A stretch of DNA of 64,000 nucleotides, taken from contig CAVUKB010000005.1 in the NCBI GenBank assembly GCA_963741955.1, forward strand, positions 640,001 to 704,000, in the 5' to 3' direction. The notes under the pieces were generated by a model. The model made no database searches and was not told where the DNA came from. It saw only the letters and a program-made list of their open reading frames with translations. Source of the stretch: an uncultured Acidobacteriota bacterium. Lineage in GTDB: Bacteria; Acidobacteriota; Thermoanaerobaculia; Gp7-AA8. The position numbers were made by a program, and so were the translations under genes. Below are positions 7,199 to 59,580 of the stretch, piece by piece (position 1 is the stretch's first letter; every line of letters starts with the position of its first letter).

Positions 7199-7996
7199 AT
7201 GTGTCTGATCACCATTTCCTGGAAGACGCATCGCCCCTGGCGCCTGGTCGTCGCCGCAAACCGGGACGAGTTGCGGGAACGTCCGACTGCCCCAGCGGAT
7301 TTCTGGCGGGAGAATTCCTCCATTCTCGCGGGACGTGATCTCTCCGCCGGCGGGAGCTGGATGGGGATCTCGACGAACGGAAGCTTCGCCGCGATCACCA
7401 ACTTCCGCGAGATGGCAGAACCGAAACCGGACGCTCCGTCCCGCGGAGGGCTGGTGCGCGCGTTCCTCGAGAGCGGTGGACCGGCCGATGCGTTTCTCGC
7501 CGGCGTGGTGCACGAGAAGTCGCGCTACGCCGGGTTCAATCTCTTCGTCTGCGACGGCGAGAAGCTCTGCTACTTCTCGAACCGTTCCGAGAGCATCGAA
7601 ACGCTTCCTCCCGGGATCTACGGATTGAGCAACCATCTGCTCGACACGCCCTGGCCGAAGGTCCGCCGCGCAAAAGCCGGATTGCGTGCGATTCTCGATG
7701 AGGGAGAAGAGGAGAAACTCTTTCCAGATCTCTTCGATCTTCTCGCCGACCACACCCGAGCCGACGATGCGGAACTGCCGGACACCGGCGTCGGCCTCGA
7801 GCGCGAACGGGATCTCTCCCCCATCTTCATCCGCGGATCGTTCTACGGAACGCGCTCGTCGACCGTCGTCGGGATCAGGGAGAACGGAGAGATGCACATC
7901 GCCGAGCACACTTTCCATCCCGACGGGAGCATCGACACGGAGAGGGAGTACCTGTTGAAAGCATCGAGGATCGTGGATCGTGGATCGTGGATCTGA
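7199..7996 (+). CDS. NRDE/TANGO2 family protein
   Basis: MCLI...AANRDE, GRDL..GG.W.G, LSNHLLDTPWPK, YGTRSSTVV; last residues are encoded by a repeat tract. Confidence 0.92.
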   Translation: MCLITISWKTHRPWRLVVAANRDELRERPTAPADFWRENSSILAGRDLSAGGSWMGISTNGSFAAITNFREMAEPKPDAPSRGGLVRAFLESGGPADAFLAGVVHEKSRYAGFNLFVCDGEKLCYFSNRSESIETLPPGIYGLSNHLLDTPWPKVRRAKAGLRAILDEGEEEKLFPDLFDLLADHTRADDAELPDTGVGLERERDLSPIFIRGSFYGTRSSTVVGIRENGEMHIAEHTFHPDGSIDTEREYLLKASRIVDRGSWI

Positions 7997-8190
7997 AAGA
8001 CATCGAGGATCGTGGATCGTGGATCGTGGATCTGAAAGACATCGAGGATCGTGGATCGTGGATCGTGGATCTGAAAGACATCGAGGATCGTGGATCGTGG
8101 ATCTGAAAGGCATCGTGGATCGTGGATCGTGGATCGTGGATCTGAAAGGCATCGTGGATCGTGGATCGTGGATCGTGGATCTGAAAGGCA
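7962..8190. repeat. Heptamer tract (GATCGTG)n punctuated by GATCTGAAAG(A/G)CATC
   Basis: Directly visible; inverted partner at 8420-8620. Confidence 0.95.
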
Positions 8191-8296
8191 TCCAGGGTCC
8201 GCGATCCTCGATGCTTTTCAGATATCAGAAGCTCGGTGCCGAGCCCCGAGCCTCGAGCGTCGCGCACCGAGCCCCGAGAAAATGGGATCGTTCAAT

Positions 8297-8419: not shown

Positions 8420-8620
8420 GTTTCAGATCCTCGATCCTAGATCCTCGATCCTGGATGCCTTTCAGATCCTCGATCCTAGATCCTCGATCCTGGATGCCTT
8501 TCAGATCCTGGATGCCTTTCAGATCCTCGATCCTCGATCCTAGATCCTCGATGCCTTTCAGATCCTCGATCCTCGATCCTCGATCCTCGATGCCTTTCAG
8601 ATCCTCGATCCTCGATGCTT
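8420..8620. repeat. Heptamer tract (GATCCTC)n punctuated by GATGCCTTTCAGATC
   Basis: Reverse-complement counterpart of 7962-8190. Confidence 0.93.
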
Positions 8621-10027
8621 TTAATATGCATTTTCGTGACGGAAGCCGTGCCGGAGCGTCATCACCAGGATCTTCACATCGAGCAGCAGCGACCAGTTCT
8701 CGATGTAATAGAGATCGTGCTCGATCCGCATCCGCACCGACGTGTTCCCCCGCCAGCCGTGGACCTGGGCCCATCCGGTGATTCCCGCGCGCACCTTGTG
8801 CCGGAGCATGTAATGCGGGAACTCGCGCCGGAACTGCGTCACGAACTCCGGCCGCTCGGGACGGGGGCCGACCAGACTCATGTCTCCCCTCACTACGTTC
8901 CACAGCTGCGGCAACTCGTCGAGTGACCACCGCCGGGTCACCCGGCCCACCTTCGTGCAGCGCGGGTCGTCCTTCTCCGCCCACACCGCGCCGCTGATCT
9001 CTTCCGCGTCGACGCGCATCGAGCGGAACTTGATGATCTCGAACGGGACGCCGTCGAGTCCCATCCGCGTCTGGCGGAAGAAGATCGGTCCGCGGTCTTC
9101 GATCCAGACCGCCATCGCGATCACCGCAATCAGCGGTGAGGCGACGATCAGGGCCACTGACGCCATCACCACGTCGAAGATCCGCTTCACGATCCGTCGC
9201 GATCCGTCGAGAGGCGCCTCGGAGAGGTTGATGGTCGGGAGCCCGTCGAGATCCTCGACCCGCGAGCGCAGCACCATGTACTGGAGGAGATCCGGGACCA
9301 CGTGCACCGAGACGTACTCTCGCGAGAGCTCGTCGAGCAGCGCGACCGTCGCAGCCGCCGACTTATGCGGAAGCGCGACATAGACGTGGTCGACGCGATG
9401 TTCCTCGATCACCCCCGGCGCATCGGCGAGCCCTCCGAGTCGCGGAAGCCCGTCGAGTTTCGACTCGGGGTCGTCGGAGACGAATCCGACGATCTGCAGC
9501 CCGAGCTCGCGGTGCGAAGCGATCCGATCGAAGACCGCGAGCGCGAGCTCGCCGCTCCCGGCGATCAGCACGCGGTCCAGACCATGACCGGCCCGGAAGC
9601 GCTTCTCGACCAGCAGCCGCACCATGGTCCGGCCGGTCATCAGCAGAACGACGGCACAGACGCTGAAGATCCCGAGCGTCGCACGCGAGTACGGCACGTC
9701 CGGGTTGCCCGGCCGGATCCAGAGAAGGACGCCCGACAGGAGCAGCGTGCCGAGTCCCGTTCCGACCGCGACTTCGAGAAGCTCCTCGGCGGGGCGCCGG
9801 GTCGGCCGCATCCGATAGAGACCTTCCAGCGCGAAGACGAGGGGAAACAGAATCGTGACCAGAGGCAGAAGATGCGTGTAGACGGTCATCTCCTGCGGAC
9901 CGCGGGTCACCGGGATGACCTCGACCGTGAAGCGGAGGACGTACGCGGCGAGCATCGCGAGATTCACCGCGATGACGTCGATGGCGAGATACGCCGTCGC
10001 CAGCGCCTTGTGCTTTCGCTCGATCAT
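8621..10027 (-). CDS. wcaJ: Undecaprenyl-phosphate glucose phosphotransferase (WcaJ-like)
   Basis: KRIFD, KFRSM, SLDELPQLWNV.RGDMSLVGPRPERP, GITGWAQVHG.RG, DLYYIENWS. Confidence 0.9.
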   Translation of the reverse strand: MIERKHKALATAYLAIDVIAVNLAMLAAYVLRFTVEVIPVTRGPQEMTVYTHLLPLVTILFPLVFALEGLYRMRPTRRPAEELLEVAVGTGLGTLLLSGVLLWIRPGNPDVPYSRATLGIFSVCAVVLLMTGRTMVRLLVEKRFRAGHGLDRVLIAGSGELALAVFDRIASHRELGLQIVGFVSDDPESKLDGLPRLGGLADAPGVIEEHRVDHVYVALPHKSAAATVALLDELSREYVSVHVVPDLLQYMVLRSRVEDLDGLPTINLSEAPLDGSRRIVKRIFDVVMASVALIVASPLIAVIAMAVWIEDRGPIFFRQTRMGLDGVPFEIIKFRSMRVDAEEISGAVWAEKDDPRCTKVGRVTRRWSLDELPQLWNVVRGDMSLVGPRPERPEFVTQFRREFPHYMLRHKVRAGITGWAQVHGWRGNTSVRMRIEHDLYYIENWSLLLDVKILVMTLRHGFRHENAY

Positions 10028-11443: not shown

Positions 11444-11530
11444 AGACCGAAAGACCGAAAGACCGGGAGACCGGGAGACCGGGAGACCGGGAGACCGGGA
11501 GACCGGGAGACCGGGAGACCGGAGACCGGA
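11444..11530. repeat. Octamer tandem repeat (AGACCGGG/AGACCGAA)n
   Basis: Directly visible. Confidence 0.9.
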
Positions 11531-30364: not shown

Positions 30365-31464
30365 GGAGCGCCGGCATCCCCAGGAGCGCCGGCATCCCTG
30401 CCGGCTCGTGACGAGCGCCCCGTGCTCGTCACCTTCTTCGCACGATCCTCCGACGCAAGAATCCCAGCACTCCCGAGATCCTCGCGGTCAGGCGCAGAGG
30501 CCTGACCGCAGCCGGCTTGAGGCCGGCATCCCCAGGAGCGCCGGCATCCCTGCCGGCTCGTGACGAGCATCCCGTGCTCGTCACTTCATTTCGCGCACGA
30601 TCCTCCGACGCAAGAATCCCAGCACTCCCGAGATCCTCGCGGTCAGGCGCAGAGGCCTGACCGCAGCCGGCTTGAAGCCGGCATCCCCAGGAGCGCCGGC
30701 ATCCCTGCCGGCTCGTGACGAGCATCCCGTGCTCGTCACTTCATTTCGCGCACGATCCTCCGACGCAAGACTCCTCAGCACTCCCGAGATCCTCGCGGTC
30801 AGGCGCAGAGGCCTGACCGCAGCCGGCTTGAAGCCGGCGCCCCCAGGAGCGCCGGCATCCCTGCCGGCTCGTGACGAGCATCCCGTGCTCGTCACTTCAT
30901 TTCGCGCACGATCCTCCGACGCAAGAATCCCAGCACTCCCGAGATCCTCGCGGTCAGGCGCAGAGGCCTGACCGCAGCCGGCTTGAAGCCGGCATCCCCA
31001 GGAGCGCCGGCATCCCTGCCGGCTCGTGACGAGCATCCCGTGCTCGTCACTTCATTTCGCGCACGATCCTCCGACGCAAGAATCCCAGCACTCCCGAGAT
31101 CCTCGCGGTCAGGCGCAGAGGCCTGACCGCAGCCGGCTTGAAGCCGGCGCCCCCAGGAGCGCCGGCATCCCTGCCGGCTCGTGACGAGCATCCCGTGCTC
31201 GTCACTTCATTTCGCACACGATCCTCCGACGCAAGAATCCCAGCACTCCCGAGATCCCTCGCGGTCAGGCGCAGAGGCCTGACCGCAGCCGGCTTGAGGC
31301 CGGCATCCCCAGGAGCGCCGGCATCCCTGCCGGCTCGTGACGAGCATCCCGTGCTCGTCACTTCATTTCGCGCACGATCCTCCGACGCAAGAATCCCAGC
31401 ACTCCCGAGATCCTCGCGGTCAGGCGCAGAGGCCTGACCGCAGCCGGCTTGAAGCCGGCGCCCC
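30365..31464. repeat. Tandem array of 7 REPIN/BIME-like units (152-156 bp)
   Basis: Units start at 30383, 30535, 30690, 30846, 31001, 31156, 31312; each carries GGAGCGCCGGCATCCCTGCCGGC plus three further hairpins. Confidence 0.95.
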
Positions 31465-31503
31465 TCCGCTTCATTCCGACCTATGCGATCATAGGCGCCG
31501 GCC

Positions 31504-32898
31504 ATGGCATCACTGCAATTCACGATCGACGAGCTGGGTCGCCTCAGCGAGTCGGAGGCGTGGCGACGCGACTCCGATCACGGCATGCGCCGGACGCTGC
31601 GATGGATGCTGCGCGCTTTCCTCGGGATCTCATTCCTCGAAGTGATCGCAACGTCCCAGCACGGAGCGAGCTATCCAGCCGGCGTCGTCATCGCCGTGGT
31701 GAATCTCCTGGTGGTCCTGCCACTCGTCCTGTCGTTCCGGGTCTGGGACGATCCGAACGGCTTCAGCTCCCACCTCCCCGGAATCACTCCGCTGTCCCGT
31801 TTCGTTCAGCGCCAGATCCGAGCGGTCGCTCTCGTCTACATCGTCCTCCAGCTCTGGATCGTGCTTTCCCTCACTCCCGGGCTCGAGTCGTGGTCGCCGT
31901 GGCTGACCCTCTTCCCCTTTTTCCCGGTGCTGTTCCGTTTCACCCCGGCGGAGCGATTCGCCGTGCACACGATCTTCATCCTGACCGGCGTTGCGGCGTG
32001 GCTCTTCTCCCCCGCGGCCGGGGTGAAGGGATTCGATTTCGGACTGGTGATCGCCGTCGCCTCCACCAACCTCATCGCGCTCGGGATCGGCCTGCTGAGA
32101 AGCTCGCGCAGACGCAAGTCGTTCGTACGCGAATTCACCCGGATCCGCGACGAGGCGGCCGACCGGATCCGGATGCGGCAGGAGCTCGAGTATGCGCGGC
32201 AGATCCAGCTCAGCATGTTGCCGCGCGAGATTCCCCGTATCGACTGGATCGATCTCGCGAGCGTCTCCCTCCCCGCGACTGAAGTCGGGGGCGACTACTA
32301 CGACTTCTATTTCCCCTCTCCCGACGGGATCGTTCTCACCTGCGCCGACGTGGCAGGACACGGACTCGGAAGCGGTCTGGTTCTCTCCGGCGTCCGAAGC
32401 GGCCTCGCTCTCCTCTCCGATCAACTCGACCATCCGGAGGTCGTGATGGAACGGATGCACGGGATGATCCGCCGGACGACGGCGAAGCGGATGCTCGTGA
32501 CCATGGCGCTTCTCGCGATCGACCGGCGGTCGCGCGTCGCCCGCTACGCCACCGCGGGGCATCCCCCCCTCCTCCTCCGTCGCTCCTCGGGATCTGTCGA
32601 GGAGATCCTTCACGGATCGCTCCCGCTCGGCGCCGGGCTCGGCGACGGCTTCCCGGTTCACGAGATCGCGTGGAACCCGGGGGACCTCTTCCTGCTGCAC
32701 ACGGATGGCCTCTATGAGACGCGCAATCCCGAAGGTCAGTCCTACGGTCTGGAGCGACTGATGGACGTGATGGCTGCACTCCCCACTGCCGGGTCAGCCG
32801 CGGAGGCCCGAGACAGCATCCTCCGCGACGTCACCACGTTCCGCGAGAGCGGCCAGCAGGAAGACGACCTCACGATCGTCGTCGCAAAGATGGCGTGA
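31504..32898 (+). CDS. Membrane-bound PP2C/SpoIIE family phosphatase (RsbU-like)
   Basis: Several N-terminal TM helices, ARQIQ..MLP, EVGGDYYD, ADVAGHG, AGHPP, TDGL.E, EDDLT. Confidence 0.92.
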   Translation: MASLQFTIDELGRLSESEAWRRDSDHGMRRTLRWMLRAFLGISFLEVIATSQHGASYPAGVVIAVVNLLVVLPLVLSFRVWDDPNGFSSHLPGITPLSRFVQRQIRAVALVYIVLQLWIVLSLTPGLESWSPWLTLFPFFPVLFRFTPAERFAVHTIFILTGVAAWLFSPAAGVKGFDFGLVIAVASTNLIALGIGLLRSSRRRKSFVREFTRIRDEAADRIRMRQELEYARQIQLSMLPREIPRIDWIDLASVSLPATEVGGDYYDFYFPSPDGIVLTCADVAGHGLGSGLVLSGVRSGLALLSDQLDHPEVVMERMHGMIRRTTAKRMLVTMALLAIDRRSRVARYATAGHPPLLLRRSSGSVEEILHGSLPLGAGLGDGFPVHEIAWNPGDLFLLHTDGLYETRNPEGQSYGLERLMDVMAALPTAGSAAEARDSILRDVTTFRESGQQEDDLTIVVAKMA

Positions 32899-32942
32899 GG
32901 CGTGGGGCGAGCGGCGGCGTATGAACCGCCGTCATCTCCACA

Positions 32943-33190
32943 GGAGCGCCGGCATCCCTGCCGGCTCGTGACGAGCATCCCGTGCTCGTCACTTCCTTTC
33001 GCGCACGATTCCTCGACGCGAGAATCCACAGCACTCCCGAGGATCCCTCGCGGTCAGGCACGGAGGCCTGACCGCAGCCGGCTTGAAGCCGGCGCCCCTC
33101 GGGCAGCCCGCATCTCCACAGGAGCGCCGGCATCCCTGCCGGCTCGTGACGAGCATCCCGTGCTCGTCACCTCCTTTCGCGCACGATTCT
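32943..33190. repeat. About 1.4 copies of the same REPIN unit (178-bp period)
   Basis: GGAGCGCCGGCATCCCTGCCGGC at 32943 and 33121. Confidence 0.92.
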
Positions 33191-45140: not shown

Positions 45141-45336
45141 TCGATCCTCGATCCCCGATCCTCAATCCTCAATCCTCAATCCTCAATCCTCGATCCTCGA
45201 TCCTCGATCCTCGATCCCCGATCCTCAATCCTCAATCCTCAATCCTCGATCCTCGATCCTCGATCCCCGATCCTCAATCCCCGTTCCTCGATCCTCGATC
45301 CTCAATCCTCGATCCTCGATCCCCGGTCCTCGATCC
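45141..45336. repeat. Heptamer tandem repeat (GATCCTC/AATCCTC/GATCCCC)n, about 28 units
   Basis: Directly visible; overlaps the 3' end of the SSS gene. Confidence 0.95.
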
Positions 45337-46779
45337 TCTGCGGCGCGCTCTCGACTCGACCACGACCGCCGCGCCGTATGCCAGGGCTGCGGCGATCGCT
45401 GCAACGAGGATGTATCCGAGGCCCGATGTCCGCACCGACGCCGGTTCGATCACGCCGAGCCACCCTCGCGATTCGGCGAAATACGCGGCGAATGTCGCGA
45501 CGAAGCCGGTGATCGAAGACCAGCGGACGCCCGCGGCCGACACCTCGGGGGCAAATACCGCGGCGACGGGAAACGCGACGGCGGTGGTGAGAATCCCGCC
45601 GGAGAGATAGAAGATCGACCAGAGTGACTCGGTGTTCAGGGCGAACACGCACGCTGCAGCCATGACCCCGATCGTCACCCATCGCGACGTCCGGCTCGAC
45701 GCTGCGTTCTTCTGCACCTCGAGAAGGTCGTATGCGATCGCCAGTCCCATCACGTTCGCGCAGGTGTCGATGGTGCTCATCGCGGCAGCGACCAGCCCCG
45801 CCGCCACGAGCATCTCCAGCCAGGCCGGCGCGTAGCGCGTGACCAGGGCTGCGAAGATCGCGTCTCCCTCCTGCCCGATCGACGCGGGGATCGAGCCGTT
45901 GTGCAGCGGGAAGAGAACCAGCGCGGCGATGCCGATGAAGAGGGGGAGGATTCCGACGAACGCGATCGAGTTGAGCCCTGCGATGAGCACTCCCCGTCGC
46001 GCGTCGCGATCGCTCCGCGCCGCCTGGACCCGGAGCCAGAGATCGGTCTCGAAAAGCCATCCCGGCAGATATGCGACGAACGTGAGAATGATGATCGCGA
46101 CGCCCGGGGAAAAGAGAGAGGTCCAGCCGGTTCCCGACTTCGCGGCGTGCACCGATGCCGGAGGAATCAGCGGAGCGCCCGCGGCGTGAAGCCCACGCAC
46201 TGCGAGGATGCCCATCGCCACGATGTAGAGAACGACGATGACGTACTGCATCCGATCCGTATCGACCACCGCGCGGAATCCGCCGAGCGACGAATAGATC
46301 GCCACGACGAGGCTGATGCCGACGACGGTGGTCGGGATCGCGAGACCGAGCGGCGATGCGAGGAGCCGCGCAGCAACGTAGATCTCCGCGCCACCCCACA
46401 CCAGAAAGACCACCGCCAGCGAGATCGCGACGCTGACGCGGGCTCCCCGGCCGAACCTCGCGCCGACCATCTCCGGCTGACTGAAAGAGGGAAGCGCGTG
46501 GTAACGCCGTGCGAGAAGGTAGATGCCACCGAGACTGAGCACCCACGGAATCGTGATCAGCCAGACTGCACCGAGTCCGTACCAGTAGAACAGCTGTACG
46601 GCGTAGACGCACGACCACGACACGGACATGAATCCAGCGGACATCGAGAGGCCGACCGATCCGCCGCCGAGGCTGCGCCCCGCGGTCCAGAACTCTCCCG
46701 GATCCTCGGCGCGCCGGCTGGCGCGCCATCCGAGCGCAATCGCGGCGAGCGAGTAGAGTAGGACAGCGAGCCGGACCAA
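45274..46779 (-). CDS. Sodium:solute symporter family protein (start uncertain)
   Basis: EFWTAGRSL, YSSLGGFRAVVDTD, W.RVQAARS, AAAMSTID, many TM helices; C-terminus is repeat-encoded. Confidence 0.85.
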   Translation of the reverse strand: MVRLAVLLYSLAAIALGWRASRRAEDPGEFWTAGRSLGGGSVGLSMSAGFMSVSWSCVYAVQLFYWYGLGAVWLITIPWVLSLGGIYLLARRYHALPSFSQPEMVGARFGRGARVSVAISLAVVFLVWGGAEIYVAARLLASPLGLAIPTTVVGISLVVAIYSSLGGFRAVVDTDRMQYVIVVLYIVAMGILAVRGLHAAGAPLIPPASVHAAKSGTGWTSLFSPGVAIIILTFVAYLPGWLFETDLWLRVQAARSDRDARRGVLIAGLNSIAFVGILPLFIGIAALVLFPLHNGSIPASIGQEGDAIFAALVTRYAPAWLEMLVAAGLVAAAMSTIDTCANVMGLAIAYDLLEVQKNAASSRTSRWVTIGVMAAACVFALNTESLWSIFYLSGGILTTAVAFPVAAVFAPEVSAAGVRWSSITGFVATFAAYFAESRGWLGVIEPASVRTSGLGYILVAAIAAALAYGAAVVVESRARRRGSRTGDRGSRIEDRGSRNGD

Positions 46780-54202: not shown

Positions 54203-54958
54203 GTGAAACCCGAGAAGACGGAAGCCATCGTGCTCCACACCTGGCCTGCGCGGGAACGCGACAAACTCGTGGTGTTCCTCACGCCCGGGTATGGAAAACG
54301 CAAAGGTTGGGCCTACGGAGCAAGATCGCTCAAGAGCCGCTTCGGTGCGGCTCTCGAGCCGCTCTCGAAGGTGGAGGTATCTTTTCTCGAGAAGGAATCG
54401 GAAGAGATCGTCAGGATCGAATCGGTCTCGCTGATCCGTTCCCTCTTCCCCGCCCAGCAGGATCTCGCCTCCAGCGTCGCGGCGACGTACCTCGCGGAAA
54501 TGATCGACGTCTTCGCTCAGCCCGACGACCCCTCGGAGCTCCTCTACCGCCTCCTCGACCGCGTCGGCGACGCTCTCCTCGCGCGCGTTCCCGTTCTCCC
54601 GCTGCTCGCCTATGCCGAGATCTGGGTCCTCAAGGTCACCGGAATCGTTCCTTCGACACGCGTCTGCATCGCGTGTGATCTTCCGCTCGAACGCCCGCTC
54701 CGCTACGACGACGAGCGCGGAGGATTCGTCTGTCCACGATGTGCGTCGCGGTCGCTCCCCCCCATTCCGAACGAGATCGCCGACGTCCTCGACGACCTCC
54801 TCCGATCACCGCTCGAGGAGTTCGCCCGCCGGGGCCACCCCGATTCGGCGATCAGCGAGATCCGTTCCTTCGCGCGCGCGCTTCGCCGTGCATTCCTCGG
54901 CCACGAGCTCAAGTCGCACGACATCGTCGAGTCGGTGCTGATCATGACGCGGAGATAG
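54203..54958 (+). CDS. recO: DNA repair protein RecO
   Basis: EAIVL....ERDKLV.FLT...GK, GAR..KSRFGAALEP, CxxC...CxxC zinc finger, ELKS. Confidence 0.92.
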   Translation: MKPEKTEAIVLHTWPARERDKLVVFLTPGYGKRKGWAYGARSLKSRFGAALEPLSKVEVSFLEKESEEIVRIESVSLIRSLFPAQQDLASSVAATYLAEMIDVFAQPDDPSELLYRLLDRVGDALLARVPVLPLLAYAEIWVLKVTGIVPSTRVCIACDLPLERPLRYDDERGGFVCPRCASRSLPPIPNEIADVLDDLLRSPLEEFARRGHPDSAISEIRSFARALRRAFLGHELKSHDIVESVLIMTRR

Positions 54959-54973
54959 GAGGGGGCGGGCCGA

Positions 54974-55894
54974 GGAGCGCCGGCATCCCTGCCGGCTCGT
55001 GACGAGCGCCCCGCGCTCGTCACCTCTCCTCGTGCCACGATCCGTACACCTGCACGAGGCGAGAATCGTTCTTTCCCCCGAGTTCCTCGCGGTCAGGCAC
55101 AGAGGCCTGACCGCAGCCGGCTTGAAGCCGGCGCCCCTTGAAACCCTGCCGAGGAGCGCCGGCATCCCTGCCGGCTCGTGACGAGCGCCCCGCGCTCGTC
55201 ACCTCTCCTCGTGCCACGATCCGTACACCTGCACGAGGCGAGAATCGTTCTTTCTCCCGAGTTCCTCGCGGTCAGGCACAGAGGCCTGACCGCAGCCGGC
55301 TTGAAGCCGGCGCCCCTTGAAACCCTGCCGAGGAGCGCCGGCATCCCTGCCGGCTCGTGACGAGCGCCCCGCGCTCGTCACCTCTCCTCGTGCCACGATC
55401 CGTACACCTGCACGAGGCGAGAATCGTTCTTTCTCCCGAGTTCCTCGCGGTCAGGCACAGAGGCCTGACCGCAGCCGGCTTGAAGCCGGCGCCCCTTGAA
55501 ACCCTGCCGAGGAGCGCCGGCATCCCTGCCGGCTCGTGACGAGCGCCCCGCGCTCGTCACCTCTCCTCGTGCCACGATCCGTACACCTGCACGAGGCAAG
55601 AATCGTTCTTTCTCCCGAGTTCCTCGCGGTCAGGCACAGAGGCCTGACCGCAGCCGGCTTGAAGCCGGCGCCCCTTGAAACCCTGCCGAGGAGCGCCGGC
55701 ATCCCTGCCGGCTCGTGACGAGCGCCCCGCGCTCGTCACCTCTCCTCGTGCCACGATCCGTACACCTGCACGAGGCGAGAATCGTTCTTTCTCCCGAGTT
55801 CCTCGCGGTCAGGCACAGAGGCCTGACCGCAGCCGGCTTGAAGCCGGCGCCCCTTTGCAACCCTGCCGAGGAGCGCCGGCATCCCTGCCGGCTC
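54974..55894. repeat. Tandem array of five 179-bp REPIN-like units plus one extra REP
   Basis: Units start at 54974, 55153, 55332, 55511, 55690; lone REP at 55870. Confidence 0.97.
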
Positions 55895-55913
55895 GCCCCG
55901 AAACGAACGTTCA

Positions 55914-56573
55914 CTACTTCGCGGTTCCGTAGAGCATCTCGCGAATCGCGTCGTCTCGAACTTCCACCCACCGCCAGTCGCGAAGTCCCGCCCTGGACGG
56001 ATTGTTCGCAATGTATCGGACTGTCTGCTCGAGATGTTTCGGACCTCTCATGAGTACGTCGAACGAGTCGTGCTGCCAGAACGGTCCCGAACGCCCGAGA
56101 ATCCGGTTGCACTCATTCGCAGAGAACGACTTCCACGAATGCAGCACTGAACCCTGCGTCCATCCGGCAAGCAATCGAAAAAGCGCGTGCACGTGATTCG
56201 GCATGATGCACCATGCCAGAAGTATGTACCGCACGCGATCGAAGTGTTTCAGCGTGTCGGCTATCACAGCGGCCGCCCGGACGTCCTTCAGGCAACAATC
56301 ACCGTATCCCTGGTCGAGCTCCCGCTGTTTTCGCTGGAAGAGGTATCGGGCGATCTGCCACTTCGCAGGCATCGACTCTTGCCTGCCTCTCAGCACCATT
56401 TCGCGTTCAAGCTGAATCCTCTCCTGCTCGATCTGATTCAGCACCGCTGAAGGGAGTGCATCGGAGAGACTGAACGTCTCGAAGTAGACTCCGTCCTTCG
56501 TATCCCAATGCGGCAAGCCGTTACGGCGGCGCATGGTCACATCGCCATAAACGAAAGGTGTTTCTTCTCGCAC
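55914..56573 (-). mobile_element. REP-associated tyrosine transposase (RAYT/TnpA-REP, IS200/IS605 HUH superfamily); start GTG 56573 or ATG 56534
   Basis: RNGLPHW...YF.TF.L, AWCIMPNHVH (HUH), WKSFSA, FWQ..SFD, RYIANNP (catalytic Tyr). Confidence 0.9.
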
Positions 56574-56616
56574 GTGGGTCGTTGTACCTCGGTGGGCATC
56601 GCCCAGGCAATCCCTC

Positions 56617-57675
56617 GGAGCGCCGGCATCCCTGCCGGCTCGTGACGAGCGCCCCGCGCTCGTCACCTCTCCTCGTGCCACGATCCGTACACCTGCACGA
56701 GGCGAGAATCGTTCTTTCTCCCGAGTTCCTCGCGGTCAGGCACAGAGGCCTGACCGCAGCCGGCTTGAAGCCGGCGCCCCTTGAAACCCTGCCGAGGAGC
56801 GCCGGCATCCCTGCCGGCTCGTGACGAGCGCCCCGCGCTCGTCACCTCTCCTCGTGCCACGATCCGTACACCTGCACGAGGCGAGAATCGTTCTTTCTCC
56901 CGAGTTCCTCGCGGTCAGGCACAGAGGCCTGACCGCCGCCCGCTTGAAGCCGGCGCCCCTTGAAACCCTGCCGAGGAGCGCCGGCATCCCTGCCGGCTCG
57001 TGACGAGCGCCCCGCGCTCGTCACCTCTCCTCGTGCCACGATCCGTACACCTGCACGAGGCAAGAATCGTTCTTTCTCCCGAGTTCCTCGCGGTCAGGCA
57101 CAGAGGCCTGACCGCAGCCGGCTTGAAGCCGGCGCCCCTTGAAACCCTGCCGAGGAGCGCCGGCATCCCTGCCGGCTCGTGACGAGCGCCCCGCGCTCGT
57201 CACCTCTCCTCGTGCCACGATCCGTACACCTGCACGAGGCGAGAATCGTTCTTTCTCCCGAGTTCCTCGCGGTCAGGCACAGAGGCCTGACCGCAGCCGG
57301 CTTGAAGCCGGCGCCCCTTGAAACCCTGCCGAGGAGCGCCGGCATCCCTGCCGGCTCGTGACGAGCGCCCCGCGCTCGTCACCTCTCCTCGTGCCACGAT
57401 CCGTACACCTGCACGAGGCAAGAATCGTTCTTTCTCCCGAGTTCCTCGCGGTCAGGCACAGAGGCCTGACCGCAGCCGGCTTGAAGCCGGCGCCCCTTGA
57501 AACCCTGCCGAGGAGCGCCGGCATCACTGCCGGCTCGTAACGAGCGCCCCGCGCTCGTCACCTCTCCTCGTGCCACGATCCGTACACCTGCACGAGGCGA
57601 GAATCGTTCTTTCTCCCGAGTTCCTCGCGGTCAGGCACAGAGGCCTGACCGCAGCCGGCTTGAAGCCGGCGCCCC
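56617..57675. repeat. Tandem array of six 179-bp REPIN-like units
   Basis: Units start at 56617, 56796, 56975, 57154, 57333, 57512; same orientation as the 54974 array. Confidence 0.97.
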
Positions 57676-57702
57676 TTTCAGCGACGCGGCGCCCCTCGGA
57701 GA

Positions 57703-59580
57703 TCAGAAGTCGAGGTTCTCCGTGATCCGCGTACCGTCCTTCGCGAACGCTTCGCGGTACTTCCGGATCCGCTTGCGGGCCACGCCGAGGTCGTGGTTGT
57801 CGAGATTGAGGTTGAGGAGATCGATGTACCAGGGGATCTTCACCGGACTGGTGACGATCGCCTCGACGATCGCGCGTGCGATCGGGAGCGTGGTTCCCTT
57901 CGAGTCGTCATGGACGTCGCGGTTGCTCGCGGTGAGGAGCTTCGCGGTCTCTTCTTCGATCAGACGCGAGAAGAGATCTTCCGTCAGTGCATCGCCCGCG
58001 CGGACGCCGGTCTCCGGATCATTCTCGGTGAACCGCGCATCTTTGTGCAGCCACTCCCAGAGGATGCTCGCACGGATCTCACCGGTGGCCATGTCCTCCA
58101 TCAGGTAGAGAACGTCTTCGTTGCCGAAGAAGTCGGCGGGCTTGAGTGCTGCAGCCTGGAATCCGCGTCCGAACGCATTGCCGTACTGGAGCGCGACGCT
58201 GAGGAGATCCCGCGCGCCACGCACCGTGCGCGGCGCCGGCTCGAGGAGGGTCAGGTCTTCCGCGTCATCCTCGGTGTAGGTCAGAGGCGGGAACTCGCGT
58301 CCCATCTGGTTCTCCTCCCCTACCTTCTCCCATACCGGGCGGACGATGTGCACCATCTTCCAGTGCGCCACCCACTTGCCGCTCGCCCCCTCGCGCTGCT
58401 CGCGCTCCGCCCCGGCGACCGCTTTCTTCATCCCCGCCTCGACGCCTCCCTTCGACCCGACCGGGATATTCGGTTCCATCCCTCCCTGCCAGAGCGCGAA
58501 ACGGCCGTTCCGGTCGGGCGTGTTCATCGCCCGCCGCACCCGGTCTTCGTAGATCCGCATGTAGCCGTACGTCATTCCGATCGCGTCGATGTTCGGATTC
58601 ACGAATGACGGATCCCACCACATCGCGTCGGCGACACTGTTGATGTAGTCCCAGCGACCGGTGTTGAACCCGACGAAGTGTCTACCGAAAGCCGCACGGA
58701 TCTCCATCAGCTGGAACGTCGCCTCGATCTGTTCGACCAGGACGTAGACCTTGATCGTGCCCGCCGGGAGCTTCAGATGCTCCTCGAGCTTCGACAGGAT
58801 GTCATTCCAGAGCGCCGCTTCTTCCGCGGTCTGGATCTTCGGCAGGTAGAGCACGATCGAACGCCCCTGGGATCTCAGCGGGCGGTAGTTGTTCACCACG
58901 TAGAGAACGGTGTCGACGATCGAGGCGGAGAATCCCGTGCCGTCCGCCTCCCGGATGTGACGGTCGTCGAGATGGAGCCCGCGTGCCCGGAAGATCCGGG
59001 TGGTGAAATCGAGCTGTTCTCTCCAGTCCGCGATGATGTCGTGGCCGAAGAACCCCTGCGCCCACCGGTTCATCTCCCCCGCGATCTTCTCGGCGACGGC
59101 GAGGAACTTCGCGTCCTTCGCGAGCGCGAGCTTCAGGTTCCGCTGGTTGTCGAGCGACATGGTGTCCACCTGACCCAGCGCGTCCTCCCCGTCGAACATC
59201 CATCCGTCCGCACCGGAGAGGAGCGCATACGCCACGTTCCTCAACCCGTCCTCGGTGGTCGATCGCGGACGCGTCGCCGGCCCGGTTCCCTGAATCCACT
59301 GCCGCTGCAGGTCGGGAGGTATCTCGCTTCCTTCGAAGTTGCCTTCGCGCGCGTCACGAACCTTGATGCCGGTGCGGGGTATGGTCGAGTCAGGATCGAG
59401 AAACCCGATCCGCTTCTTCGATCGCGCACGTTCCTGGCGTCGCGCGATCCGCTCGTTCATGATGCGCCGCCGTTCACGATTCAGAGGCACGAGAAGCTCC
59501 ATCGCGTCGACCGCCTCAGCGGTCAGGATGTCGGGGTAGGCTTCGGTCAGACGATCTCGAATCTCGAGCTTTCGCGGCAT
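57703..59580 (-). CDS. Malate synthase
   Basis: DGED, RARGLHL, LYLPK...EEA.LWN, VLVE, GFNTGRWDYI, GGM, G.WVAH, LMEDMATGEI. Confidence 0.9.
   Translation of the reverse strand: MPRKLEIRDRLTEAYPDILTAEAVDAMELLVPLNRERRRIMNERIARRQERARSKKRIGFLDPDSTIPRTGIKVRDAREGNFEGSEIPPDLQRQWIQGTGPATRPRSTTEDGLRNVAYALLSGADGWMFDGEDALGQVDTMSLDNQRNLKLALAKDAKFLAVAEKIAGEMNRWAQGFFGHDIIADWREQLDFTTRIFRARGLHLDDRHIREADGTGFSASIVDTVLYVVNNYRPLRSQGRSIVLYLPKIQTAEEAALWNDILSKLEEHLKLPAGTIKVYVLVEQIEATFQLMEIRAAFGRHFVGFNTGRWDYINSVADAMWWDPSFVNPNIDAIGMTYGYMRIYEDRVRRAMNTPDRNGRFALWQGGMEPNIPVGSKGGVEAGMKKAVAGAEREQREGASGKWVAHWKMVHIVRPVWEKVGEENQMGREFPPLTYTEDDAEDLTLLEPAPRTVRGARDLLSVALQYGNAFGRGFQAAALKPADFFGNEDVLYLMEDMATGEIRASILWEWLHKDARFTENDPETGVRAGDALTEDLFSRLIEEETAKLLTASNRDVHDDSKGTTLPIARAIVEAIVTSPVKIPWYIDLLNLNLDNHDLGVARKRIRKYREAFAKDGTRITENLDF

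Follow-up and report, generated by a model that had tools for sequence, protein, structure and literature searches.

Among the closest known relatives of the locus analyzed here are the REPtrons, in which a tnpA_REP gene, encoding a tyrosine transposase associated with repetitive extragenic palindromic (REP) sequences (a RAYT), is accompanied by REPs close by, cleavage taking place at CT or CA beside the REP under the guidance of a tetranucleotide (Corneloup et al. 2021, PMC8266576). As described by Ton-Hoang et al. (2012, PMC3333891), tnpA_REP genes are bordered by variable numbers of tandem bacterial interspersed mosaic elements (BIMEs) that are well conserved within a locus; strand transfer assembling extra units was obtained in vitro, and models of excision and integration and of rolling-circle-like amplification were put forward. 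In Pseudomonas fluorescens SBW25, paired REPs that fold into a hairpin (REPINs) form tandem clusters of near-identical copies that take in their flanks, and every RAYT gene has such a cluster next to it (Bertels & Rainey 2011, PMC3116915). Two further accounts bear on the host phylum: REPs joined to unrelated stem-loops, along with RAYT-like genes of Acidobacteria flanked by terminal inverted repeats, are described by Di Nocera et al. (2013, PMC3733652), and the classification of TnpA_Y1 enzymes includes a class 3 from Acidobacteria and Planctomycetes with a Y----Q signature (Quentin et al. 2018, PMC6006769). Here, we analyze a stretch of 64,000 nucleotides, hereafter the window, from an uncultured Acidobacteriota bacterium (GenBank assembly GCA_963741955.1, contig CAVUKB010000005.1, positions 640,001 to 704,000), in which a single RAYT gene is embedded in an array of 179-bp multi-hairpin direct repeats. 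The locus is, with high probability, a REPtron, that is, a domesticated single-copy gene for a Y1 HUH enzyme of the RayT/TnpA_REP type bordered by tandem copies of its partner repeat. The repeat resembles BIMEs and REPINs and is about 166 nt long; a GGAG-tagged REP (REP-a) and an inverted REP (REP-b) form its ends and enclose two conserved hairpins along with a variable core.

A RAYT gene inside a homogeneous array of long repeats

The array spans positions 54974-57677 and comprises 11 units of 179 bp with 0-2 differences each in the assembly sequence. Each unit consists of REP-a, hairpin 2, a variable core hairpin, hairpin 3, the inverted REP-b, and a 13-nt linker; five units are followed by a 747-bp REP-a-to-REP-a segment that carries the RAYT gene and then by six more units in the same orientation. 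The REP-a heads, which begin with GGAGCGCCGGCAT, start at 54974, 55153, 55332, 55511, 55690, 55870, 56617, 56796, 56975, 57154, 57333, and 57512, with head-to-head spacings of 179, 179, 179, 179, 180, 747, 179, 179, 179, 179, and 179 bp. The modal unit is matched exactly by four units, and four others differ from it by a single base (T103C in one, G88A in units 4, 8, and 10, that is, on both sides of the gene); among the remaining units, one has two base differences, one has a linker longer by 1 nt, and the final one, truncated to 166 nt, carries two changes and stops directly after REP-b at 57677. The stretch is also recognized by Tandem Repeats Finder (TRF; score 2669 at period 179), albeit reported as 15 copies with 75% matches, because the TRF run crosses the RAYT gene. 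When folded as single-stranded DNA, the unit reaches a predicted -58.5 kcal/mol, compared to -33.6 +/- 3.4 kcal/mol for 200 shuffled sequences, none of which equaled it (z -7.3); the opposite strand gives a z of -7.7.

Unit and gene segment are homologous at the borders only: on the left, the homology covers REP-a plus TCG, and on the right, it resumes exactly at GGAGC. The lone REP-a on the left is preceded by a slightly altered array linker and ends 18 nt from the RAYT stop codon. These observations agree with the first-pass annotation of the window, which had reported five and six near-identical units in one orientation around a single RAYT gene and had listed sub-motifs and hairpins, all of which are present; its statement that the gene sits where the interior of a unit would be is fair, given that homology ends after REP-a plus TCG and restarts at GGAGC. 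Because near-identical direct repeats (~0.9 and 1.06 kb) flank the RAYT gene, it would be expected to be prone to loss by recombination. Open reading frames of 60-83 codons within the units were not taken as genes, being mechanical repeats of one another.

An enzyme resembling TnpA_REP

The RAYT protein, for which we adopted the ATG where the alignments of homologues begin, matches the Pfam family Y1_Tnp (PF01797) over residues 100-178 with 29.1 bits, above the cut-off of 23. The predicted HUH motif is H114-V-H116, on a strand of the structural model, and the putative catalytic tyrosine is Y174 (YIANNP), on a helix. A sequence comparison with the PDB matched E. coli TnpA_REP only (4ER8; E 0.13), and the corresponding motifs align (HvH with HmH, YiannP with YiyiNP). 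All 29 invariant columns in the alignment of 41 homologues are preserved in the protein, including H114, H116, and Y174, along with N178, P179, and an N-terminal L-P-H motif. The AlphaFold model is of good quality (predicted local distance difference test score 88.5, predicted template modeling score 0.83), and its top Foldseek match is again 4er8_A (E 5.5e-7, template modeling score 0.63 by target, ~16% identity over the fold alignment), followed by the IS200, ISDra2, and IS608 transposases (2f4f, 2xma, 2a6m), with an E value of 7.8e-4 for the best IS200-type chain. By sequence and predicted fold, the protein is closer to TnpA_REP than to the transposases of the IS200/IS605 insertion sequences (ISs).

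The enzyme belongs to a large and divergent set of proteins: 952 relatives were retrieved at E 1e-10 among 5.8 billion clustered proteins, none of them more than 50% identical, and those with names are mostly annotated 'REP element-mobilizing transposase RayT' (JGI) or 'transposase' (NCBI). Within the source genome (G000; 5.44 Mb in 16 contigs, 63% G+C, the contig with the window being 1.47 Mb long), tblastn detected one match of 100%, the others being 39.5, 37.9, 36.0, and 28.7% identical; the RAYT gene is single-copy. Several homologues of 302-351 aa (P0003, P0004, P0011, P0012, P0093) contain PF02675 ahead of the Y1_Tnp domain, one of them being named S-adenosylmethionine/arginine decarboxylase-like by JGI; these are either fusions or run-on gene calls.

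A dispersed family of four-hairpin elements

A search of the genome with a profile of the unit detected 45 copies at 16 loci, and 44 occurrences of the REP-a 23-mer were counted when up to 2 mismatches were allowed. There are 11 copies at the RAYT locus, 9 at C5:670383-673188 (window 30383-33188), 6 at C4:323448, 3 at each of two loci, 2 at each of two more, and 1 at each of nine, that is, seven multi-copy loci (2 to 11 matches) and nine singletons. The two largest arrays of the family are located at the RAYT gene and 24 kb away from it. The aligned representatives of the loci have in common REP-a, hairpin 2, a GCGAGA stretch, hairpin 3, and REP-b, whereas the inter-hairpin core and the sequence that follows REP-b vary from locus to locus; the linker is 13 nt long at the RAYT array, ~2 nt in the array of 155-bp units, and ~20 nt on C4. 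Because linkers and core differ among the loci, the bounds of the dispersed element are placed at REP-a and REP-b (150-166 nt), and each array repeats this element together with its own linker. Units bounded by a REP and an inverted REP, eleven well-conserved copies in tandem, and linkers that differ by locus are what characterizes BIMEs.

For the analysis of covariation, 32 of the 37 full-length copies were aligned, the five omitted being duplicates of included rows. In this alignment, 98.6% of the cells of the four-hairpin structure are paired, and compensatory changes are found in four base pairs (two each in hairpins 2 and 3), totaling 30 cells, a covariation score that none of 500 shuffles reached; no slid register comes near it. 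Because the copies are related, this covariation represents few independent events. The stems of REP-a and REP-b are themselves invariant among the aligned copies. In the minimum-energy fold, the 5' half of REP-a is joined to the 3' half of REP-b, and this helix is paired in 91.2% of the cells overall, with six invariant inner pairs and column pair 3/166 unpaired in 18 of 31 copies; no covariation signal for the long-range stem was detected among the aligned copies beyond the invariant GCCGGC. Pairing between REP-a and REP-b is indistinguishable from local folding because the inner pairs are invariant and the outer ones only partly paired. In the 5' tag, G1 and G2 are invariant among the 32 copies, and positions 3 and 4 vary (A/G and G/C, respectively).

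REP-a and RAYT genes in related genomes

The source genome is the only one of its genus in our comparison, for which 61 genomes of the family were searched. The whole unit is present in the source genome only, and REP-a-sized pieces were found, in both orientations, in 9 of the 60 other genomes. In G033, a member of a related genus, elements of ~140 bp bounded by REP-a-sized pieces lie just past stop codons (L123, L131); they are arranged as REP, hairpin, core, hairpin, inverted REP and have REP-a in common with the unit, the internal hairpins being different. In G037, another member of a related genus, a RAYT homologue with 46% identity has an exact REP-a 20-mer at ~50 nt from its stop codon; the 20-mer is followed by a second GCCGGC hairpin, and inverted copies are present on both sides of this gene. 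Hairpins of the GCCGGC-loop-GCCGGC type are present at 7 of the 12 RAYT loci from the same family, where the tandem periods are 23-25 bp, and 69 bp in one case. A survey of more distant relatives covered 79 loci (Acidobacteriota, Planctomycetota, Verrucomicrobiota, Chloroflexota, and cyanobacteria), 71 of these with 700 bp on both sides; at 44 of the 71, the two flanks share at least five 12-mers, with 28 direct and 28 inverted cases. The recurrent flank words are GTAG-CGCCGGC and GTAA-CGCCGCC, and GTAA-CGCCGGC was also seen in relatives. The REP-a hairpin is likely the cognate REP of the enzyme and, because the RAYT flanks of relatives carry REP-a or hairpins of the GTAG-CGCCGGC type, it appears to be a local version of this clade's GTAG-tagged REP in which the tag has become GGAG.

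Together with the protein comparisons, these findings substantiate three readings of the first-pass annotation, namely, that the gene is a RAYT (the Y1_Tnp match, with 4ER8 as the best match in both sequence and fold), that the hairpin is the REP of this enzyme (the REP-a 20-mer beside the G037 homologue and GTAG-CGCCGGC beside distant relatives), and that the unit is a long REPIN/BIME-like one, which moreover turned out to be dispersed. The accompanying generalization that RAYTs usually have inverted REP flanks finds little support in the even split between direct and inverted repeats among the 71 relatives.

Among the genomes compared, the source genome stands apart in having the long composite unit and the long arrays. 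TRF reported no period of at least 60 bp beside the 79 distant RAYT relatives (periods of 25-54 bp were found at eight loci), and at 11 same-family RAYT loci along with three others (L154-L156), the largest tandem period was 69 bp x 2.5. The lack of long arrays in relatives is weak evidence because many of the family genomes are fragmented. In these, a contig end is often no more than a few hundred bases away from the RAYT homologue, so that short-read metagenome bins may underestimate the number of such arrays. A search for RecO was positive in 19 of 21 genomes, the source genome included; at none of the 11 relatives' loci was a malate-synthase gene detected within ~1.5 kb downstream of recO, hence there is no empty site for comparison.

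Y1 genes and tandem arrays across the genome

TRF identified 183 arrays with a period of at least 60 bp in the whole genome; these total 168,550 bp, or 3.1% of the genome, and include several hairpin-bearing families. There are 14 Y1-like places, namely, the RAYT gene, three places with RAYT-like paralogues, and ten other Y1_Tnp matches. Tandem arrays lie within 400 bp on both sides of five of the 14 (Table 1) and on one side only of two more, compared to arrays on both sides in 0.09% of 20,000 random 600-bp segments. Each type of Y1 gene is paired with its own repeat family, and the flanking repeats are direct at the RAYT-like genes and inverted at the two IS200-type genes. One of the latter, C10:469871-470206 (L140, G000:C10:468801-471200), lies between 7.3 and 7.6 units of an inverted 91-92-bp hairpin repeat and constitutes a second, independent case of a gene inside an array. 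The RAYT-like paralogues at L133 (G000:C9:38270-41791) and L134 (G000:C7:485120-488602) share a near-identical upstream stretch of ~300 bp, rich in GCGACCGAGACGGTCGC hairpins, and therefore look like a duplicated REPtron.

Table 1. Features of the RAYT locus, other copies of the element family in the window, and further Y1 genes located between tandem arrays.
Feature	Position	Strand	Evidence or context
Left array, 5 tandem units (179, 179, 179, 179, 180 bp)	54969..55869	+	motifs, TRF, unit alignment, fold
Lone REP-a (GGAGC + GCCGGC-ATCCCT-GCCGGC + TCG)	55870..55895	+	motif match; same layout, REP-a by the stop codon, in G037
RAYT-type Y1/HUH gene, 206 aa, between arrays	55914..56534	-	profiles, homologues, model
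Unique 82-nt leader, RAYT start codon to next REP-a	56535..56616	-	no sigma-70-like promoter by simple scan
Right array, 6 tandem units (5 x 179 bp + 166 bp ending in REP-b)	56617..57677	+	motifs, unit alignment
Second array of the family (7 x 155 bp), with ~81% identity to the 179-bp unit	30370..31464	+	profile matches; upstream of SpoIIE-domain gene
Two further units of the family, one full and one truncated	32943..33188	+	profile matches; downstream of SpoIIE-domain gene
RAYT-2, between arrays	C5:1213765
RAYT-3a, between arrays	C9:39770
IS200-type Y1 gene, between arrays	C7:941635
IS200-type Y1 gene, between arrays	C10:469871

Apart from the arrays in Table 1, the window contains four arrays of 7-bp units (GATCCTC / ATCGTGG / TCGATCC) at 979-1189, 7956-8196, 8421-8622, and 45141-45338, with 24 to 33 copies each and, in some, higher-order periods of 35-39 bp, as well as an 8-bp tandem repeat, AGACCGGG, at 11444-11529 (10.9 copies).

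Origin of the arrays

By analogy with the E. coli, Stenotrophomonas, and Marinomonas enzymes, from which we infer catalysis and the mode of amplification, the RAYT protein would bind the folded REP on single-stranded DNA and cut a dinucleotide near the foot of the hairpin; its tyrosine would hold the cut 5' end and then join it to another 3'-OH. Acting in trans, the enzyme could have spread the element to the 16 loci, and in a second step, local amplification of the element together with its linker would have yielded the 11 near-identical units at the gene and the smaller arrays elsewhere. We favor, at about even odds, growth of the arrays through cutting and joining catalyzed by the enzyme, or through primed copying from one REP foot to the next, in line with the published BIME model.

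Several observations weigh against the REPtron assignment or parts of it. The NCBIfam equivalog for these enzymes, NF047646 (REP_Tyr_transpos), scores 62.3 bits against a cut-off of 80 and covers residues 83-184 only; two RAYT-like paralogues likewise fall under this cut-off (55.4 and 59.8 bits). The AlphaFold model contains a two-helix insertion after strand 1 that is missing from 4ER8. The tag is GGAG (GGGG, GGAC, and GGGC at other loci) and not the GTAG described as essential for the E. coli enzyme (PMC8266576). The orientation of the elements agrees with the local GC skew at 11 of the 16 loci, which is not significant. Units of the family bracket non-transposase genes, too, given that the SpoIIE-domain gene (31504-32898) is preceded by the 155-bp units and followed by one full and one truncated unit. 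Arrays are common in families for which no adjoining Y1 gene was detected, for example, 29 + 13 arrays with an GTGCGGATCC...GATCCGC hairpin, so that array growth needs no neighboring enzyme gene. Finally, the number of units is that given by the assembly.

Alternatively, the arrays may have been made and homogenized by the host alone, through unequal homologous recombination or replication slippage, with the RAYT having at most seeded the first copies, a scenario that we regard as quite plausible, at somewhat below an even chance. The repeated period includes the locus-specific linker, as expected from unequal exchange starting with an initial dimer; the presence of G88A in every second unit on the right side (8 and 10) suggests growth in two-unit steps; and among the 183 genomic arrays, those of 21 x 151 bp (C1:82847-86018) and 23 x 86 bp (C4:696017-697991) are far from any Y1 gene. 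Conversely, the frequency of Y1 genes between arrays greatly exceeds that in random segments, the family has its two largest arrays at the RAYT gene and 24 kb from it, and TnpA_REP adds BIME units in vitro, as described in PMC3333891; these points disfavor a host-only origin without being decisive. A role of the hairpins as host RNA or DNA structures, such as 3'-end protection, termination of the convergent genes, or protein-binding sites, for which they would be conserved rather than for transposition, is compatible with the REPtron assignment, and we consider it unlikely as the explanation of the array. The array does occupy the interval separating recO from the convergent malate-synthase-like gene, its start lying 11 nt past the stop codon of the former and its end 25 nt before that of the latter; covariation is seen in hairpins 2 and 3, even though the REP alone is required by the enzymes studied to date; and roles of this kind are ascribed to REPs and BIMEs in the literature (PMC8266576). 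However, Rfam covariance models produced no match to either strand of 54800-57800 at E up to 1, a simple scan of the locus for promoters and terminators yielded no site of either kind, and a single set of hairpins would suffice for such a role, which leaves the eleven copies unexplained.

The first-pass annotation had taken the RAYT segment for the autonomous unit of the system, which is not supported, as the gene is single-copy. Another reading is that the 747-bp segment is an autonomous IS200/IS605-like insertion sequence of which the 179-bp units are non-autonomous miniature derivatives. In its favor, the gene has identical, directly oriented hairpins on either side, much like the ends of IS608-type elements, and the fold is shared with the transposases of IS200, IS608, and ISDra2. 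We nevertheless reject this interpretation as very improbable because the RAYT gene is present in one copy in 5.4 Mb, the next paralogue being only 39.5% identical. In addition, there is no second 747-bp segment in the genome; the gene segment resembles no unit interior; the relatives behave as single genes with REP flanks; and the lone REP-a, given that the array's own linker precedes it, is a truncated unit rather than an IS end.

It is also very improbable that the length of the array is an artefact, with the repeat over-expanded or mis-joined during assembly. The public contigs examined originate from three runs of one study; no short contig from these runs crosses the array, and the contigs break at its edges. 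Contig depths are 7.76 for the RAYT gene, 10.2-10.3 for the flanks, 19.2 for a 128-nt unit-interior contig, and 19.8 for a unit-junction contig; the depth of 19.2 against ~10 in the flanks may be counted in favor of an artefact. The unit contigs were placed at only some of the copies among the matches listed, and neither copy number nor deletion frequency is derived from these depths. On the other side of the ledger, the summed depth of the unit contigs is of the order of 100 against 10, albeit not a clean measure; the unit-specific differences stand in a fixed order; the short contigs confirm the recO-to-REP-a and REP-a-to-RAYT junctions; a second sample contains the last unit with one difference; and an assembly of 16 contigs, one of 1.47 Mb, presumably was built from long reads that span 2.7 kb.

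Beyond the REPtron assignment, one can envisage that, in this lineage, any stretch from one REP-a foot to another is an exchangeable cassette: the enzyme would cut one strand at an identical position next to every REP-a, ends from different feet would be rejoined, and single units, blocks of units, or the 747-nt segment would leave as single-stranded circles that re-insert or are copied in a rolling-circle-like manner, the RAYT being a self-mobilizing cassette within its own array and the two additional covarying hairpins being needed for the reaction. We deem this extension distinctly unlikely; if true, it could also explain several array families in the ~3% of the genome that consists of long-period tandem DNA.

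The locus is a clean natural substrate for the study of such systems, with an enzyme from a divergent clade, a perfect small GGAG-tagged REP, and eleven ordered units marked by internal differences. The same genome offers several other Y1 genes, each between arrays of its own repeat, and it represents a soil Acidobacteriota genome with ~3% of the DNA in long-period tandem arrays, in which REP-type systems can grow into multi-hairpin units of 150-180 bp. To our knowledge, amplification of REPs, BIMEs, and REPINs in the cell has been modeled only from in-vitro work on three proteobacterial enzymes.

Comparison with known REP/RAYT systems

Among the known systems, the E. coli REPtron (4ER8; PMC3333891, PMC8266576) is similar in that, as described there, a single-copy Y1 HUH gene is bordered by units of REP and inverted REP with linkers, the units are tandem and well conserved per locus, and the same REPs are dispersed between genes; the two-step model of spread followed by local amplification applies to both. 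In contrast to the E. coli case, the unit here is 179 bp long, with ~120 nt from REP to inverted REP containing two covarying hairpins and a variable core instead of a short linker; the tag is GGAG rather than GTAG, and the REP stem is a perfect 6-bp GC stem without a bulge; the eleven units are 99-100% alike; and the host belongs to the phylum Acidobacteriota. The enzyme, too, departs from 4ER8, both in its low identity over the fold alignment and in the two-helix insertion. The similarity to the REPIN-RAYT system of P. fluorescens SBW25, as presented in PMC3116915, consists in a replicating unit that is an inverted pair of REPs, one repeat family per RAYT, and singletons next to ordered tandem clusters of near-identical copies that include flanking sequence, with a cluster by each RAYT. 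However, the largest tandem cluster given in that account comprises four REPINs (~700 bp), compared to 11 units and 2.7 kb here, and the SBW25 REPINs fold as one long hairpin, whereas the element here has interior hairpins, and REP-a:REP-b pairing in it cannot be told from local folding.

The TIRtrons and TIRYTs (PMC3733652) and the class 3 TnpA_Y1 enzymes (PMC6006769) resemble the present system, as described in these papers, in being RAYT-like genes of Acidobacteria with longer, partly double-palindromic repeats that form moderately abundant families with dimers and clusters. Unlike these, the repeats here are clearly REP-like, with GTAG-CGCCGGC in relatives, and the enzyme has Y-x-x-x-N-P, as in 4ER8, and not the Y----Q of class 3, a distinction drawn from the published description of that class only. 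The composite repeats of Pseudomonas (PMC3733652) likewise combine degenerate REPs with unrelated stem-loops, there in hundreds of copies. With the IS200/IS605 elements (IS608, ISDra2), the locus shares the Y1 HUH fold, direct hairpins on both sides of the gene, and, by expectation, single-strand chemistry; in contrast to these ISs, the gene is not multicopy, the gene segment is apparently immobile, and the small hairpin elements are the mobile part.

The first-pass annotation had suggested an undescribed RAYT/long-REPIN system, which goes too far, given that tandem BIMEs and REPINs beside RAYTs, as well as rolling-circle-like models, are published (PMC3333891, PMC3116915). A literature search (REPtron, RAYT/REPIN tandem, Acidobacteria REP) retrieved no account of four-hairpin units of 150-180 bp or of arrays of this size. 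The locus is not a new kind of element but belongs to a known type, the REP/RAYT systems, here in an exceptionally large and regular form with several variant features, namely, the long four-hairpin unit, the GGAG tag, the size and homogeneity of the array, the divergent clade of the enzyme, and the location of 5 of the 14 Y1 genes of the genome between arrays.

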